Assembly (NCBI GenBank): GCA_963931515.1
Contig: OZ007022.1
Span: 882,122-946,121, forward strand
Source: an uncultured Bacilli bacterium
Lineage (GTDB): Bacteria; Bacillota_I; Bacilli_A; RF39; UBA660
Length of the DNA: 64,000 nt
Direction of reading: 5' to 3'
How positions within the stretch are numbered: the stretch's first letter is position 1; each line of letters begins with the position of its first letter. Made by a program: the position numbers and the translations under genes. The notes beneath the pieces are model-generated. The model did no database searches and was not told the DNA's origin. It saw only the letters and a program-made list of their open reading frames with translations. This document shows, piece by piece, positions 8,661 to 29,376 of this stretch.

Positions 8661-8699
8661 TTAGCTATTTTATATAAGAACAAAATACCAAAATAAATT

Positions 8700-8812
8700 T
8701 TGGCATTAGCTTACCTCACGGTAAGCTTTTTCTACTTCACAGAAACCTAAGGCTTCTCCATAGACCAGTATCGGATGGTTGCCACCCTAATTTTTTTGTC
8801 AAAATTTATTGA
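8700..8812 (-). ncRNA. Candidate omega-RNA (reRNA) scaffold in the right end of the tnpB element
   Basis: Directly abuts the tnpB stop codon (8813-8815); two hairpins (gcttacc-tcac-ggtaagc; agaaacc-taa-ggcttct); the second locus copy keeps the hairpins through compensatory substitutions. Confidence 0.45.
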
Positions 8813-9959
8813 TTAAATAGATTGTTCAATTCCTCTCATATATATTTCTAAACCTTTAAACATTATATTAACTGCTGCATTATAATCACGTTCATGCTCT
8901 ATATGACATATTGGACATTCCCATTTTCTTATACTTAAATCTTTGACTTCCTTATTTTGATAATTACAAACATTGCATATTTGACTACTTGGATAATATC
9001 TATCTATTTGTATCAGTTTTTTATTATTCCAGTTAGCTTTATATTTAAGTACTCTAATTATTTCTGATATTGGGTTTTCATTTAAACCTTTTGCTACATA
9101 GTGATTCTTCTGCATATTTCTTACATCTAAATCTTCAGTTACTATAATGTCATTTTCGTTTATTAGTTTATTTGTTATATCATGTATCATATGTTTTCTT
9201 GCATTTCTTATTTTTTGATATAATCTTTGTATTTTTAATTTCATTTTATATCTATTTTTACTTCCTTTTTTACATCTTGATATTCCTCTTTGTAAGCCTA
9301 TCATTCTTTTTGTGTTAAGTTTTATATTATTTTCTATTTTCTCATTAAATGATGTTACTATTAAATCTTTTATCCCTAGATCTATTCCTATTATACTTGT
9401 TGGAACAAAAGATGGTCGTATTAATTCTTCGTTGGTTAAGACACTTACATAATATCTTCCTGCATCTTTTTTAATTACGGCACTTTTTACCTCACCAGGT
9501 ATAATATTTTTATTCCTATATCCTCTAATTTTTACTTCTTTTAATTTTGGTAAGGTAATTGTCTTATTTTTTAAATCTAATTTTATACTGTTATAATTAT
9601 TACCTTTATAACCACTTTTTATATTATTAGTTTTATAACTTTCATGAACTCCTTTAGCTTTAAATCTAGGATAACCACTTCCGTTATAAAATCTTTTATA
9701 AGCATCTTCTAAATTAAATAGACTATTTCGAAGTGCGCAGCTATCAACTTCTTTTAAAAATGGATATTCTTTAGAAAGTGATGGTATCAATTTAATTTGG
9801 TCATAAGCTGTTTTACTTTTGCCTGCTATCTTATATTCTTTAATTTTATCATCTAAAAAATAATTATATATAAATCTAGCGCAACCAATAGTTTTATTAA
9901 TTAACTCTTCTTGCTTTTCATTAGGATACATTCTAAATACATAACCTTTTAGTATTTTC
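8813..9959 (-). CDS. tnpB: TnpB (IS200/IS605 OrfB; RuvC-like RNA-guided nuclease family)
   Basis: MKILKGYVFRMYPNEKQEEL start typical of OrfB; C-terminal zinc finger and RuvC-III region (CNVCNYQ...WECPICHIEHERDYNAAVNI). The track ORF extends to 10030 from an upstream start; ATG at 9957-9959 is preferred. Confidence 0.8.
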
Positions 9960-10109
9960 ATAACATCACCCTCTATCATTATTGCAATCAATATATCACG
10001 AATAGTTATATTTGTAAATAGTTTTAGCAAACGTTTGTTTACTGTTCAAAAATGCACTTTCCTTATATAATAAAAAACCCACACTTAAATGTATGAGTTT
10101 AAATTTCAA

Positions 10110-10183
10110 TGGAGCGGATGAGGAGAATCGAACTCCCGTAATCAGCTTGGAAGGCTGGGGTTCTACCATTGAACTACATCCGC
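10110..10183 (-). tRNA. tRNA-Gly (anticodon UCC)
   Basis: Reverse complement reads GCGGATGTAGTTCAATGGTAGAAC...CCTTCCAAGCTGA...GGGAGTTCGATTCTCC...CGCTCCA: cloverleaf with T-arm GTTCGATTC, anticodon loop CTTCCAA, encoded CCA. Confidence 0.85.
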
Positions 10184-26069: not shown

Positions 26070-26920
26070 TTATTGTTTCATTTCTAATTTCTTGTTTACC
26101 TTACCTTCTAATCGTTTTCTTTCTTTTTCAAGTTCTTTTAAACTTTTCTTAGGTGTAGGCATATCTTCGGGCATCATTCCACCAATGTCAGCAATCGCTT
26201 TTCTAACCTTTTTACCCACTTCATAATGGACATTTTTGGCATTGTATTCTCCTTGAACATTATCCCTTATAAGTTTTTGCTTCGTTTGATTGATTCTAAA
26301 CAAATTAGCTACTAGCTCATCATCATTCATATTATCTAAAATATCTTCTCTATATCGTAACTTTTTTCTTTTAAAAATGTCATCAGCTGTTTCACCATTG
26401 TATAGTCCTTTATATCCCGCATTATGAAACTCAGCCATATTTTTACTCCTGCAGATGAGGCAACTTTTTGTAAAGTATAATTACCTTGTTTTGTTAATTT
26501 TCTTTGATAAAGTCTTTTTTCATCCTCTGATAGAGAATCATATTCTTGTTCGGTGATTTCCTGCTTTCTCGTTTGAACAGCAAAATAAGTTTGACCTAAT
26601 GCGACAACTTCTTTACTTGGATCAGCATTTTGTACTATCAAATAACAAATATATCTTGATAATTTATAATCCTTAATAAATTCTTGTTTGCCTTTTCCTG
26701 TTTTTATTGGCTTGTTGATTTCAACAACCCAATCTTCATTACCATGAATACTATTATTTGCAGACATTATTGCTTTATCAATTACTTTCTTAAAATTTCT
26801 CCAATCTTTATATTCTAAAACCTTTTGCAGATCACGGGCAAGCCAATATTCGTTACCATATTCATCAATATGTTTTATATCTTCAAAAGTTTTACTAGTA
26901 TATTTATTAACAATTTCCAT
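26070..26920 (-). pseudogene. dinD: DNA-damage-inducible protein D (DinD) homologue, frameshifted
   Basis: Two overlapping ORFs (26336-26920 and 26070-26438) together align along DinD (LSRYICYLIVQNADPSKEVVALGQTYFAVQTRKQE; EFHNAGYKGLY...MPTPKKSLKELE); frames switch at the T5 run 26440-26444. Confidence 0.7.
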
Positions 26921-27260: not shown

Positions 27261-27743
27261 CTAATTAGAATAATTAATTTGAATGTATTTTAGTATTTCT
27301 TCAATGTTTTTTTCAGAAACGAAGTCATAACCTTTATGAAACATTTCTTTTGTTTTAGAATCTTTTTGTTTCATGGCTTTTCCAGCTAGTTTGACAATTA
27401 TCTTTTTGAATATATTTAATTTTGAATAGTTAATGCCACCTCTTAGGTAAAATAAAGGTTTATCTATTTGATTAGATTTTTTTAGTTCATTTAGATAATC
27501 ACTAGAAAAAGGATAAGCCCCGACAGCACCATAGATAACGATGTTAAAGTTATCTTGAAGTTTAGATTTCCCTTGTATTTTTCCAGCACAAATCCATCCT
27601 AAAAAAATAGCTTTATCTTCTTTGGTTAAATGTTTTGCTGCTTCGGCTGAAGTATAATATGGAATTTTTAGTTTGTCACTTAACATTTTGGCATATCTTA
27701 AGGTGTGATTTGTTTTACTTTCGTATATTATAGCTTTAATCAT
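27261..27743 (-). CDS. Flavodoxin-like protein (160 aa)
   Basis: MIKAIIYESKTNHTLRYAKML N-terminus typical of short flavodoxin-fold proteins. Confidence 0.5.
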   Translation of the reverse strand: MIKAIIYESKTNHTLRYAKMLSDKLKIPYYTSAEAAKHLTKEDKAIFLGWICAGKIQGKSKLQDNFNIVIYGAVGAYPFSSDYLNELKKSNQIDKPLFYLRGGINYSKLNIFKKIIVKLAGKAMKQKDSKTKEMFHKGYDFVSEKNIEEILKYIQINYSN

Positions 27744-27835
27744 AAAATAGACTCCTTTATAATCTTTAATATTATTATATCATACATTATCAAAAACGAA
27801 ATATTCATAGAACAAAAGTCAAAAATTATTTTAAC

Positions 27836-27945
27836 TTAGCTTACCTCACGATAAGCTTTTTCTACTTCACAGGGACCTTAGGTCCCTCCATAGACCAATA
27901 TCGGATAGTCGCTACCCTACTTTTTTACTTTGTCAAAATTTAACA
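27836..27945 (-). ncRNA. Orphan omega-RNA-like structured module (second copy of the tnpB right end, no tnpB attached)
   Basis: About 85% identical to 8707-8808; hairpin 2 differs by paired substitutions (agggacc-tta-ggtccct versus agaaacc-taa-ggcttct), hairpin 3 likewise; strand inferred from the tnpB-linked copy. Confidence 0.45.
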
Positions 27946-28110
27946 ATTGTTTTATTTTTTATTATATAATAGATTAACTACTCATTCTTAATGTTTGTTT
28001 AAATTAACCCTTAATATTTTTATATCATCACCTCATCTCTTTGATGTACTTAGCATATCACAAACATTTGTTCTTGTAAATAGTTTTTTATTTCTTACAA
28101 AGCAAATTCT
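27836..28110. mobile_element. tnpB-less IS200/IS605-derived remnant (right-end block plus internal left-end block)
   Basis: 27836-27945 matches the element-1 right end; 28025-28100 resembles element-1 9960-10040 (shared catcacc...atatcac...ttgtaaatagtttt). Confidence 0.45.
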
Positions 28111-28215
28111 TAGTATAAAAAAGGGGTGAAATAAATTTCACCCTTCACCCTAACGGGTGATTTTTTTTGCTTTAATCAAAATTTATTGGTAAAATTTAGT
28201 TTAAAGTGATGTTAT

Positions 28216-29376
28216 ATGATATTGTGTACTAGTAAAGATAAAGATTTTGAAAATTATAAAGAACGTATTTCTATTAGAAAAGTATTTTTTACTATTAAAG
28301 AAATTTTTAAAGATCATTGGGATGATTATCAAACTAAATATTCTCATATTAAAAGACGTCCTATTATCAATATTGTAATTGATAAATTTCTTAAATGTAA
28401 AACTTTTCTTCTTGGTTATTCTGTTTATAAATGTCCTATTTGTGATAAGGAAAAAGTTGTCCCTAATACTTGTAAAACTAGATTCTGTTCTTCTTGTGGT
28501 AATAAATACAATGAAGATAGAGCTATTTCTATCTTTTCTAAACTATTTAAATGGCGTCATCGTCATGTTGTTTTTACTATTCCAGAAGATTTAAGAGGAA
28601 TCTTTCAAAATAATAGAAAACTATTAAATCTTCTTTTTCAAGCTTCTGCTATTACTATTAAATATTGGTTTAAAGAAAAATACAAAAGGGACAATCTCAT
28701 TCCTGCCTTTATATCTGTCCTTCATACTTATGGTAGAGCTTTAAATTGGAATCCACACATTCATATGATTTTATTAGATGGTGGTATATCCAAAACAAAT
28801 TTTAAAAACATAGACTTCTTTTCATATGCTTCTTTCAGAAAACGATTTATGAAAGTCATTCTAGATTTATTAGAAAATGAACTTGGAAAAGATGAATTTA
28901 GACAAATCAAAAACGATTTATATCGTAGATACAAAGATGGCTTTTATGTTTACGCCCCTAAATCATTATATAAATCTATTAAAGATCTCTTAAAATATGT
29001 TTGTAGATATTTATCGAGACCTGTTATGGCTGAATCTCGTATTTTAGATTATGATGGTATCTTTGTCACCTTTTGGTATCAAAGGCATACTGATAACGTA
29101 ATTGTTATAGAAAAAATTCATGCTTATGAATTTATTCATCGATTAATTATTCATATCCCTGAACCAAATTTTAAATATATTAGATTTTATGGTGCTTACA
29201 ATAACAAAACTATTATTACTATTGATGTAGCTAAATTTATGGATAATGACAGAATTAATTTTAAAAAATCTCTAAACAAATGGCGTAATAAAATTTTAAT
29301 TAATTTTCATGTTGATCCTCTTATTTGTCCACATTGTCACGAAGAAATGGTATACTATAATAGTTACTACACGTAA
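28216..29376 (+). CDS. IS91-family (HUH, Y2) rolling-circle transposase
   Basis: N-terminal zinc-binding CPICDK...CKTRFCSSCG; HUH motif LHTYGRALNWNPHIHMILLDGG; catalytic tyrosine pair in LKYVCRYLSRPVMAESRI. Confidence 0.75.
   Translation: MILCTSKDKDFENYKERISIRKVFFTIKEIFKDHWDDYQTKYSHIKRRPIINIVIDKFLKCKTFLLGYSVYKCPICDKEKVVPNTCKTRFCSSCGNKYNEDRAISIFSKLFKWRHRHVVFTIPEDLRGIFQNNRKLLNLLFQASAITIKYWFKEKYKRDNLIPAFISVLHTYGRALNWNPHIHMILLDGGISKTNFKNIDFFSYASFRKRFMKVILDLLENELGKDEFRQIKNDLYRRYKDGFYVYAPKSLYKSIKDLLKYVCRYLSRPVMAESRILDYDGIFVTFWYQRHTDNVIVIEKIHAYEFIHRLIIHIPEPNFKYIRFYGAYNNKTIITIDVAKFMDNDRINFKKSLNKWRNKILINFHVDPLICPHCHEEMVYYNSYYT

Follow-up and report, generated by a model that had tools for sequence, protein, structure and literature searches.

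A gene-less IS200/IS605-type mini-element, probably PATE-like, with an ωRNA-like right end in gut Bacilli

The block that abuts the 3' end of a tnpB gene recurs, without a tnpB gene, some distance away in the 64-kb stretch of DNA analysed here (the window). This locus raises the question of what a structured tnpB end does on its own. The original prediction, made from the two copies, took the second one for an orphan module whose hairpins are kept by paired substitutions, and proposed three roles for it, namely a trans-acting guide for the TnpB of the same window, a decoy or a domesticated RNA.

The repeated block and the element around it

The window is AT-rich, with a GC content of 28.7%. 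BLASTN within the window aligned positions 8677-8808 with 27809-27942 at 82.4% identity over 136 columns (E 4e-32), and a MAFFT alignment of 8678-8808 with 27810-27945 gave a mean column identity of 84%, so that the repeat itself was borne out. BLAST within the window found no third copy, and the two right ends, scoring 121 and 126 bits with a covariance model, are the only high-scoring sites in the window. A tblastn search found a single TnpB in the whole window and none beside copy 2, as had been claimed. With matches at E 4e-32 and one tnpB in the window, the earlier observation therefore stands. The limits first drawn for the block (8707-8808 and 27836-27945) were too narrow, however, since it reaches the right end (RE) of the element, at 8678 in copy 1 and 27810 in copy 2.

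Copy 1 belongs to a full-length, tnpB-only element of the IS200/IS605 family (Table 1), with ends AGGAATTTGC...UUUUGUUC. Its tnpB coding sequence had been given as 8813-9959, two nucleotides short. By homology, the product is an ISDra2-like RNA-guided nuclease: it carries the Pfam domains HTH_OrfB_IS605, OrfB_IS605 and Cas12f1-like_TNB, reaches 288 bits with the NCBIfam model guided_TnpB (cut-off 100) and aligns over its full length with the ISDra2 TnpB (8h1j, E 1.5e-69). The RuvC D/E/D triad is intact, and the motifs GIDLGIKD, VTEDL and HERDYNAAVNI align with the catalytic motifs of 8h1j. Homologues of this TnpB number in the thousands; the best 120 are 84-93% identical to it, and many of these 120 share one chromosome of 1.3-1.5 Mb.

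Table 1. Features of the full-length element (copy 1) and of the mini-IS (copy 2) in the window
Feature	Position	Strand	Description or basis
Copy 1, tnpB-only IS200/IS605-family element	8678-10069	-	1392 bp; ends from comparison with homologous loci
tnpB	8813-9961	-	382 aa; ISDra2-like RNA-guided nuclease by homology
Copy 1 RE, ωRNA-like scaffold	8678-8808	-	alignment, covariation, covariance model, fold
Copy 1 RE hairpin H3	8773-8787	-
Copy 1 RE hairpin H2	8741-8757	-
Copy 1 RE hairpin H1	8709-8726	-
Copy 1 RE hairpin H4	8685-8706	-
Copy 1 terminal UUUUGUUC	8678-8685	-
Copy 1 predicted guide position	8662-8677	-	inferred from RE boundary
Copy 1 LE promoter-like site	9990-10018	-	TTTACA, 17 nt, TATATT, with TG
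Copy 1 TAM-like TTTAT	10070-10074	-	5' of copy 1 LE
Mini-IS (copy 2)	27810-28114	-	305 bp; internally deleted, non-coding; order LE, spacer, RE; homology to copy 1
Mini-IS RE, ωRNA-like scaffold	27810-27945	-	alignment, covariation, covariance model, fold
Mini-IS RE hairpin H3	27903-27917	-
Mini-IS RE hairpin H2	27871-27887	-
Mini-IS RE hairpin H1	27839-27856	-
Mini-IS RE hairpin H4	27818-27835	-
Mini-IS CUAU..GUAG helix	27862-27893	-	encloses H2
Mini-IS terminal UUUUGUUC	27810-27817	-
Mini-IS LE	28011-28114	-	homology to copy 1 LE
Remnant of tnpB ribosome-binding site and first codons	28009-28034	-	alignment with copy 1, L002 and L003
Mini-IS LE promoter-like site	28052-28080	-	TTTACA, 17 nt, TATGCT; TG upstream of second hexamer
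Mini-IS predicted 16-nt guide position, UAUGAAUAUUUCGUUU	27794-27809	-	flank 3' of RE; inferred from RE boundary
Mini-IS TAM-like TTTAT	28115-28119	-	directly 5' of mini-IS LE

The description of copy 2 as an orphan module is misleading, because the block is the RE of an internally deleted copy of the insertion sequence (IS) whose left end (LE) is also present. BLAST matched 28011-28087 to 9949-10025 at 73% identity (E 1e-6), and the LE retains a remnant of the start of tnpB in which ATA stands in place of the ATG start codon; the limit of the LE is placed to within 1-2 nt. A spacer of ~65 nt separates LE and RE. It could not be aligned clearly with the tnpB 3' end, and the deletion breakpoints are therefore approximate. 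No TnpB remnant was detected in the mini-IS by tblastn, and its longest open reading frame (44 aa) is spurious. Both ends of the parent IS are thus held in the correct order and orientation, and LE, spacer and RE on the minus strand identify 27810-28114 as an IS copy that lacks nearly all of tnpB. The promoter-like site of the LE is kept in all mini and full-length LEs aligned; these sites are consensus matches, of a kind no commoner in this AT-rich DNA than in shuffled sequence.

Pairing among the copies and the nature of the scaffold

Selection on RNA structure had been read from two sequences, which are insufficient for such a conclusion, but the reading is sustained by covariation in 89 distinct copies and by strand asymmetry: in the further copies, the substitutions are paired rather than random. 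We scored the four hairpins and the invariant CUAU/GUAG helix. This structure was defined by hand, with shuffle and slide controls, because the consensus that RNAalifold drew from the MAFFT alignment lacked H3 as well as the outer portions of H1 and H4. Standard pairs occupied 95.9% of the cells against 83.3% in shuffles, and 22 of the 33 pairs had changes on both sides (378 cells). The covariation score was 0.366, compared with 0.147 after shuffling, and none of 500 shuffles reached the observed values; sliding the partners by 1-3 columns lowered the score to ~0.05. When the 18 intact tnpB-less copies were taken alone, 96.8% of cells were paired, with double changes in 13 of 27 pairs. Over the two sets, the scores were 0.37-0.44, against ~0.05 in the slid controls. 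G·U cells far outnumbered A·C cells (241 versus 21), from which it follows that the tnpB-sense strand carries the structure. Single-sequence folds agree with that strand, with z-scores of -4.5 (copy 1) and -5.9 (copy 2) on the minus strand and of -3.0 and -1.8, respectively, on the plus strand.

In the window itself, every scored pair of copy 2 is standard, despite a divergence of ~16% from copy 1. The paired differences reported for two of the hairpins were confirmed: H2 reads AGAAGCC/GGUUUCU in copy 1 and AGGGACC/GGUCCCU in copy 2, and H3 reads GGGUGG/CCAUCC and GGGUAG/CUAUCC, respectively. Hairpin 1, described as conserved, in fact differs by one substitution in copy 2, where the minus-strand RNA has a G·U wobble and the plus strand an A·C mismatch. 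All three hairpins first described are there, but a fourth, H4, which also shows paired changes, had been missed.

Some right ends depart from this scheme. The 5' strand of H3 is replaced (GGGCAAAAGAC...) in L003, L048, L049, L051, L077, L086 and L087 (loci are designated here by L numbers), and the rest of the scaffold is intact. These right ends come from OZ007038.1 and strain-level relatives; six are linked to tnpB, and the upstream sequence of L086 is too short for it to be classified. H3 may be dispensable, or the copies with a broken H3 may be impaired.

The RE scaffold is encoded on the same strand as tnpB, at its 3' end, comprises four stems over ~110-130 nt and stops exactly at the transposon boundary. 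In copy 1, the H4 loop is UUUA at positions -20 to -17 from the RE end. In the ISDra2 ωRNA, whose scaffold is 116 nt long, a UUUA tetraloop joins the tracr-like and cr-like halves (PMC10097598). Its position and architecture make the scaffold a probable ωRNA. Compared with the ISDra2 TnpB-ωRNA system (Karvelis 2021; Nakagawa 2023, PDB 8H1J; PMC10097598), the element shares TnpB with its D/E/D residues, a sense-strand RNA from the RE, a four-stem scaffold of ~116 nt, the UUUA loop at -20 to -17 from the guide junction and a T-rich TAM 5' of the LE. The two differ in the motif, TTGAT in ISDra2 and TTTRT-like here, and in the scaffold, nearly all of which here follows the stop codon and in which a pseudoknot is not demonstrable. 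Between the two RNAs, no sequence similarity was detected. An Rfam 15 search of either copy gave no match at the gathering score and none meaningful at E<=10; this shows only that no curated model covers the block.

As a candidate for a pseudoknot or closing helix, an upstream GAACAA(AA) could pair with the terminal UUUUGUUC (UUGUUC). In DNA so rich in A, complements of this kind are at chance level (median shuffle p 0.86), and the helix was dropped as evidence.

The 16 nt directly outside each RE are the predicted guide positions, the RE boundary being the point at which similarity among copies is lost. The original prediction had called for these 16-mers to be compared with other sequences; within the window, the comparison returned only self matches and chance matches with three mismatches, hence no second target for the copy 1 flank and no second match for that of the mini-IS. 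Among the three proposed roles, that of a trans-acting guide for TnpB is plausible. Neither the decoy nor the domesticated RNA found support, the RuvC site of TnpB being intact and the flanking 16-mer being without a second target in the window. Gene-less PATE-like elements 'often encode ωRNAs', for which TnpB would need to act in trans (PMC10055086). We consider that copy 2 is, with good probability, such a PATE-like, non-autonomous IS200/IS605 mini-element derived from a tnpB-only IS, whose ωRNA TnpB would need to use in trans. Gene-less elements of this type have already been described, and the block is not a new RNA class.

Relatives, insertion sites and mobility

To collect relatives, we scanned a genome collection for the RE pattern with two anchors fixed and hairpin 2 left free. 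This single scan returned 102 loci, in uncultured gut Bacilli that include Ca. Onthocola, Ca. Coprosoma and Firmicutes CAG:822; viral contigs gave 0 matches to the pattern. Approximately 60 loci had enough upstream sequence to be evaluated, with a full tnpB in ~35 and none in ~20. The window copy belongs to a first mini family, together with L021/L116, L055, L057/L117 and L118 (L116-L118 are metagenome loci), whose members have an identical internal junction and unrelated flanks on both sides, at >=5 junctions in >=3 hosts. On its right, L118 is flanked as the L057/L117 insertion is, but its left flank differs; two mini-element copies may have recombined, or the site may have been rearranged. 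A second mini family comprises nine copies at nine sites, and L022/L091, L095 and L100 are further independent deletion lineages. Other orphans (L080, L085, L101 and L070) are truncated or decayed, with 71-88% of cells paired.

All members of mini family 1 have H2 in the form GGRRCC/GGUYCC and all full-length relatives in the form AGAAGCC/GGUUUCU, so that the differences of the window copy are lineage differences; no full-length element with the H2 variant of the mini family was found among the relatives collected. Within the family, H2 occurs as GGGACC/GGUCCC, GGAACC/GGUUCC and GGGGCC/GGUUCC, and H4 varies through G·U intermediates. Pairing is kept in six of the seven variable pairs, two of them with double changes, and one stem change breaks a pair. 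The H4 loop of copy 2 is UAAU, whereas UUUA is seen in the other minis of family 1 and in the rest of its closest relatives. The retention of the fold in the minis could in part be inherited from different full-length parents, or have come by recombination, rather than reflect selection after the loss of tnpB.

In ~40 elements, mini and full-length, the left flank ends in TTTAT or TTTGT, and rarely in TTCAT, TTAAT or ATTGT. On the right, similarity between copies stops at ...TTTTGTTC and the flanks are unrelated. The ends are asymmetric, without terminal inverted repeats or target duplication, and insertion is 3' of a conserved motif. On the sequence evidence, this pattern is the footprint expected of IS200/IS605-type insertion at a target motif without duplication. 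The predicted empty site of the window mini-IS is TTTAT|TATGAATATTTCG. No empty site was found among the contigs that encode the identical flavodoxin protein: wherever the flank of a strain contig was long enough, the element was there.

Several elements are preceded directly by a terminator-like hairpin and T-run, as in the window at 10075-10183 and 28119-28143 (both on the minus strand) and in the left flanks of L005, L024, L029, L072, L104 and others. The gene for tRNA-Gly(UCC), at 10110-10183, lies just upstream of copy 1, whose TAM-like motif follows a terminator-like hairpin, and that of the mini-IS is at the end of the hairpin and T-run which the terminator scan placed at 28124-28143. 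The TTTAT/TTTGT motif appears to steer insertions into terminator T-tracts. An identical left flank, ...GTAGAATTCTACATAATT(G/A)T, is found in the otherwise unrelated L050 and L064 (mini) and L089 and L105 (full-length), which suggests a hot-spot repeat or nesting in a left-end remnant.

No cognate Y1 tnpA was found in the 64-kb window. A solo IS200-like Y1 tnpA lies at L003:8397-8822 in a related genome, 1.2 kb upstream of a tnpB element; it was rejected as the mobiliser, as its flanking hairpins and ends are unrelated to the tnpB-element ends.

Other features adjoin the mini-IS. A weak covariance-model match (27 bits) lies at 28112-28197 (overlapping 28124-28170) on the minus strand, just upstream of the LE. 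The hairpins UCACCCGUUAGGGUGA and GGGUGAAAUUUAUUUCACCC and a U-run make it up, and before them stands CCAATAAATTTTGA, similar to the beginning of the RE block. In a terminator scan, the same region reads as a bidirectional terminator pair that separates the mini-IS from an adjoining IS91-family Y2 transposase gene (28216-29376, plus strand; Zn_Tnp_IS91 and Y2_Tnp). The match could be a terminator pair, the relic RE of an older element, or chance. With the IS91-family gene beside the mini-IS, the interval from rplS-lepB to flavodoxin has therefore gained at least two unrelated mobile elements. On the other side, next to the flavodoxin gene, a Bro-N open reading frame (26336-26920) overlaps a 122-aa open reading frame in another frame (26070-26438); the pair (26070-26920, minus strand) may represent an antirepressor-like gene that is frameshifted or in two parts.

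Alternative readings and wider meaning

These observations fit a scheme in which a tnpB-only IS like that at 8678-10069 would have lost nearly all of tnpB to give the 305-bp mini-IS. The LE promoter would transcribe the scaffold into the flank, yielding an ωRNA whose guide is the ~16 nt beside the RE. TnpB from full-length relatives, here that encoded at 8813-9961, would bind this RNA in trans. After excision, the empty site, made of TTTAT and the guide sequence, would be cut, and recombinational repair from a sister copy would retain the mini-IS. Finally, a Y1 TnpA acting in trans may move it to new TTTRT sites, often in a terminator T-run, a step for which the insertion footprint speaks. A bolder form of this scheme, to which we give somewhat less than even chances, holds that the tnpB-less minis are a long-lived, guide-RNA-only selfish lineage with its own promoter, its fold having been selected after the loss of tnpB, that hijacks the TnpB of its full-length relatives for its own retention.

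The main rival is that the mini-IS is an inert relic, a dead deletion derivative whose hairpins are intact through youth or through inheritance from structured parents, which we regard as possible but rather unlikely. It would agree with the fixation of the window copy in all strain contigs examined, its atypical H4 loop and the decayed state of the other orphans. Moreover, in one strain (L108:25-1600) the left part of the mini-IS has given way to a DDE_Tnp_1 (IS4-like) transposase gene; L108 and the window are homologous only from within the RE onwards, so another IS interrupted the element. A dead copy does not, however, explain why the family recurs with the same internal structure at its several junctions and hosts, why its stem differences preserve pairing in nearly all variable pairs, or why all scored pairs of the window copy are intact at its distance from copy 1.

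The readings that invoke DNA signals or flavodoxin regulation are weaker. The first holds that the hairpins serve TnpA as single-strand DNA signals at the right end and are not RNA, which seems improbable. Subterminal hairpins at IS200/IS605 ends are recognised by TnpA on the top strand (PMC10055086). H4 lies only 8-10 nt from the end, as this reading would have it. G·T pairs are tolerated in DNA hairpins too, so the strand asymmetry alone does not exclude top-strand DNA. TnpA requires one subterminal hairpin per end, whereas four covarying hairpins extend over ~110 nt here, so that the reading explains at most H4; the LE has no matching hairpin set, and in its location behind tnpB, its layout of four stems and the place of its tetraloop the scaffold agrees with the ISDra2 ωRNA.

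Still less probable is that the element has been domesticated as a regulator or promoter donor, its LE promoter or RNA controlling the flavodoxin gene. That gene (27261-27743) is co-oriented and begins 67 nt downstream of the mini-IS, the predicted guide sits 51-66 nt upstream of its ATG, and the arrangement is kept in all strains seen. This adjacency is all that speaks for such control. Other family members adjoin unrelated genes, and the flank has an extended -10-like motif of its own, TGATATAAT, noticed by eye and not recovered in the promoter scan. In TldR systems (Wiegand et al.; PMC10705468), a TnpB-family guide RNA is likewise found away from a mobile tnpB gene, but there a nuclease-dead TnpB is guided to a fixed host promoter. 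Here the TnpB nuclease site is intact, the RNA lies in a mobile mini-element, and neither flanking 16-mer recurs in the window, so the system is not TldR-like. An assembly duplication or a low-complexity coincidence, for which nothing was found to speak, is already excluded by the E-value of the repeat, by recovery of the locus in >=9 independent assemblies and by homologous elements in >100 loci.

For the preferred reading of copy 2 as a PATE-like mini-element, the closest parallel is given by the ISGst elements of Geobacillus stearothermophilus (Meers et al. 2023, PMC10055086), which consist of the LE and RE of a tnpB or iscB IS. Like the mini-IS, these are multi-copy and have no protein gene, retain the ωRNA region and presumably depend on TnpA and TnpB in trans. 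The present elements differ in their hosts, small-genome gut Bacilli known from metagenome-assembled genomes (MAGs), and in IS lineage, and they are known from sequence alone; on the other hand, the deletion junction, the LE promoter-like site and pair-preserving divergence inside one mini lineage are documented here. The MITEs of bacterial IS are also short, non-coding, multi-copy deletion derivatives mobilised in trans. In contrast to these, IS200/IS605 elements have ends that are not inverted repeats, their insertion duplicates no target sequence, and the mini-IS, unlike classical MITEs, carries a functional-looking predicted guide-RNA gene.

Current understanding is unchanged, as Meers et al. 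2023 had put the concept forward before. What the locus presents is a TnpB homing system split into modules, one element with the nuclease and another, gene-less, with promoter, scaffold and ends. The >100 copies, with their covariation, RE boundary and TTTRT motif, provide a ready ωRNA model and a TAM hypothesis for the 382-aa ISDra2-like TnpB, and the mini-elements may serve as natural 'sgRNA cassettes' for use in trans. If the selfish-lineage reading is true, the mini-elements would be hyperparasites of the TnpB homing system across several species of gut Bacilli.
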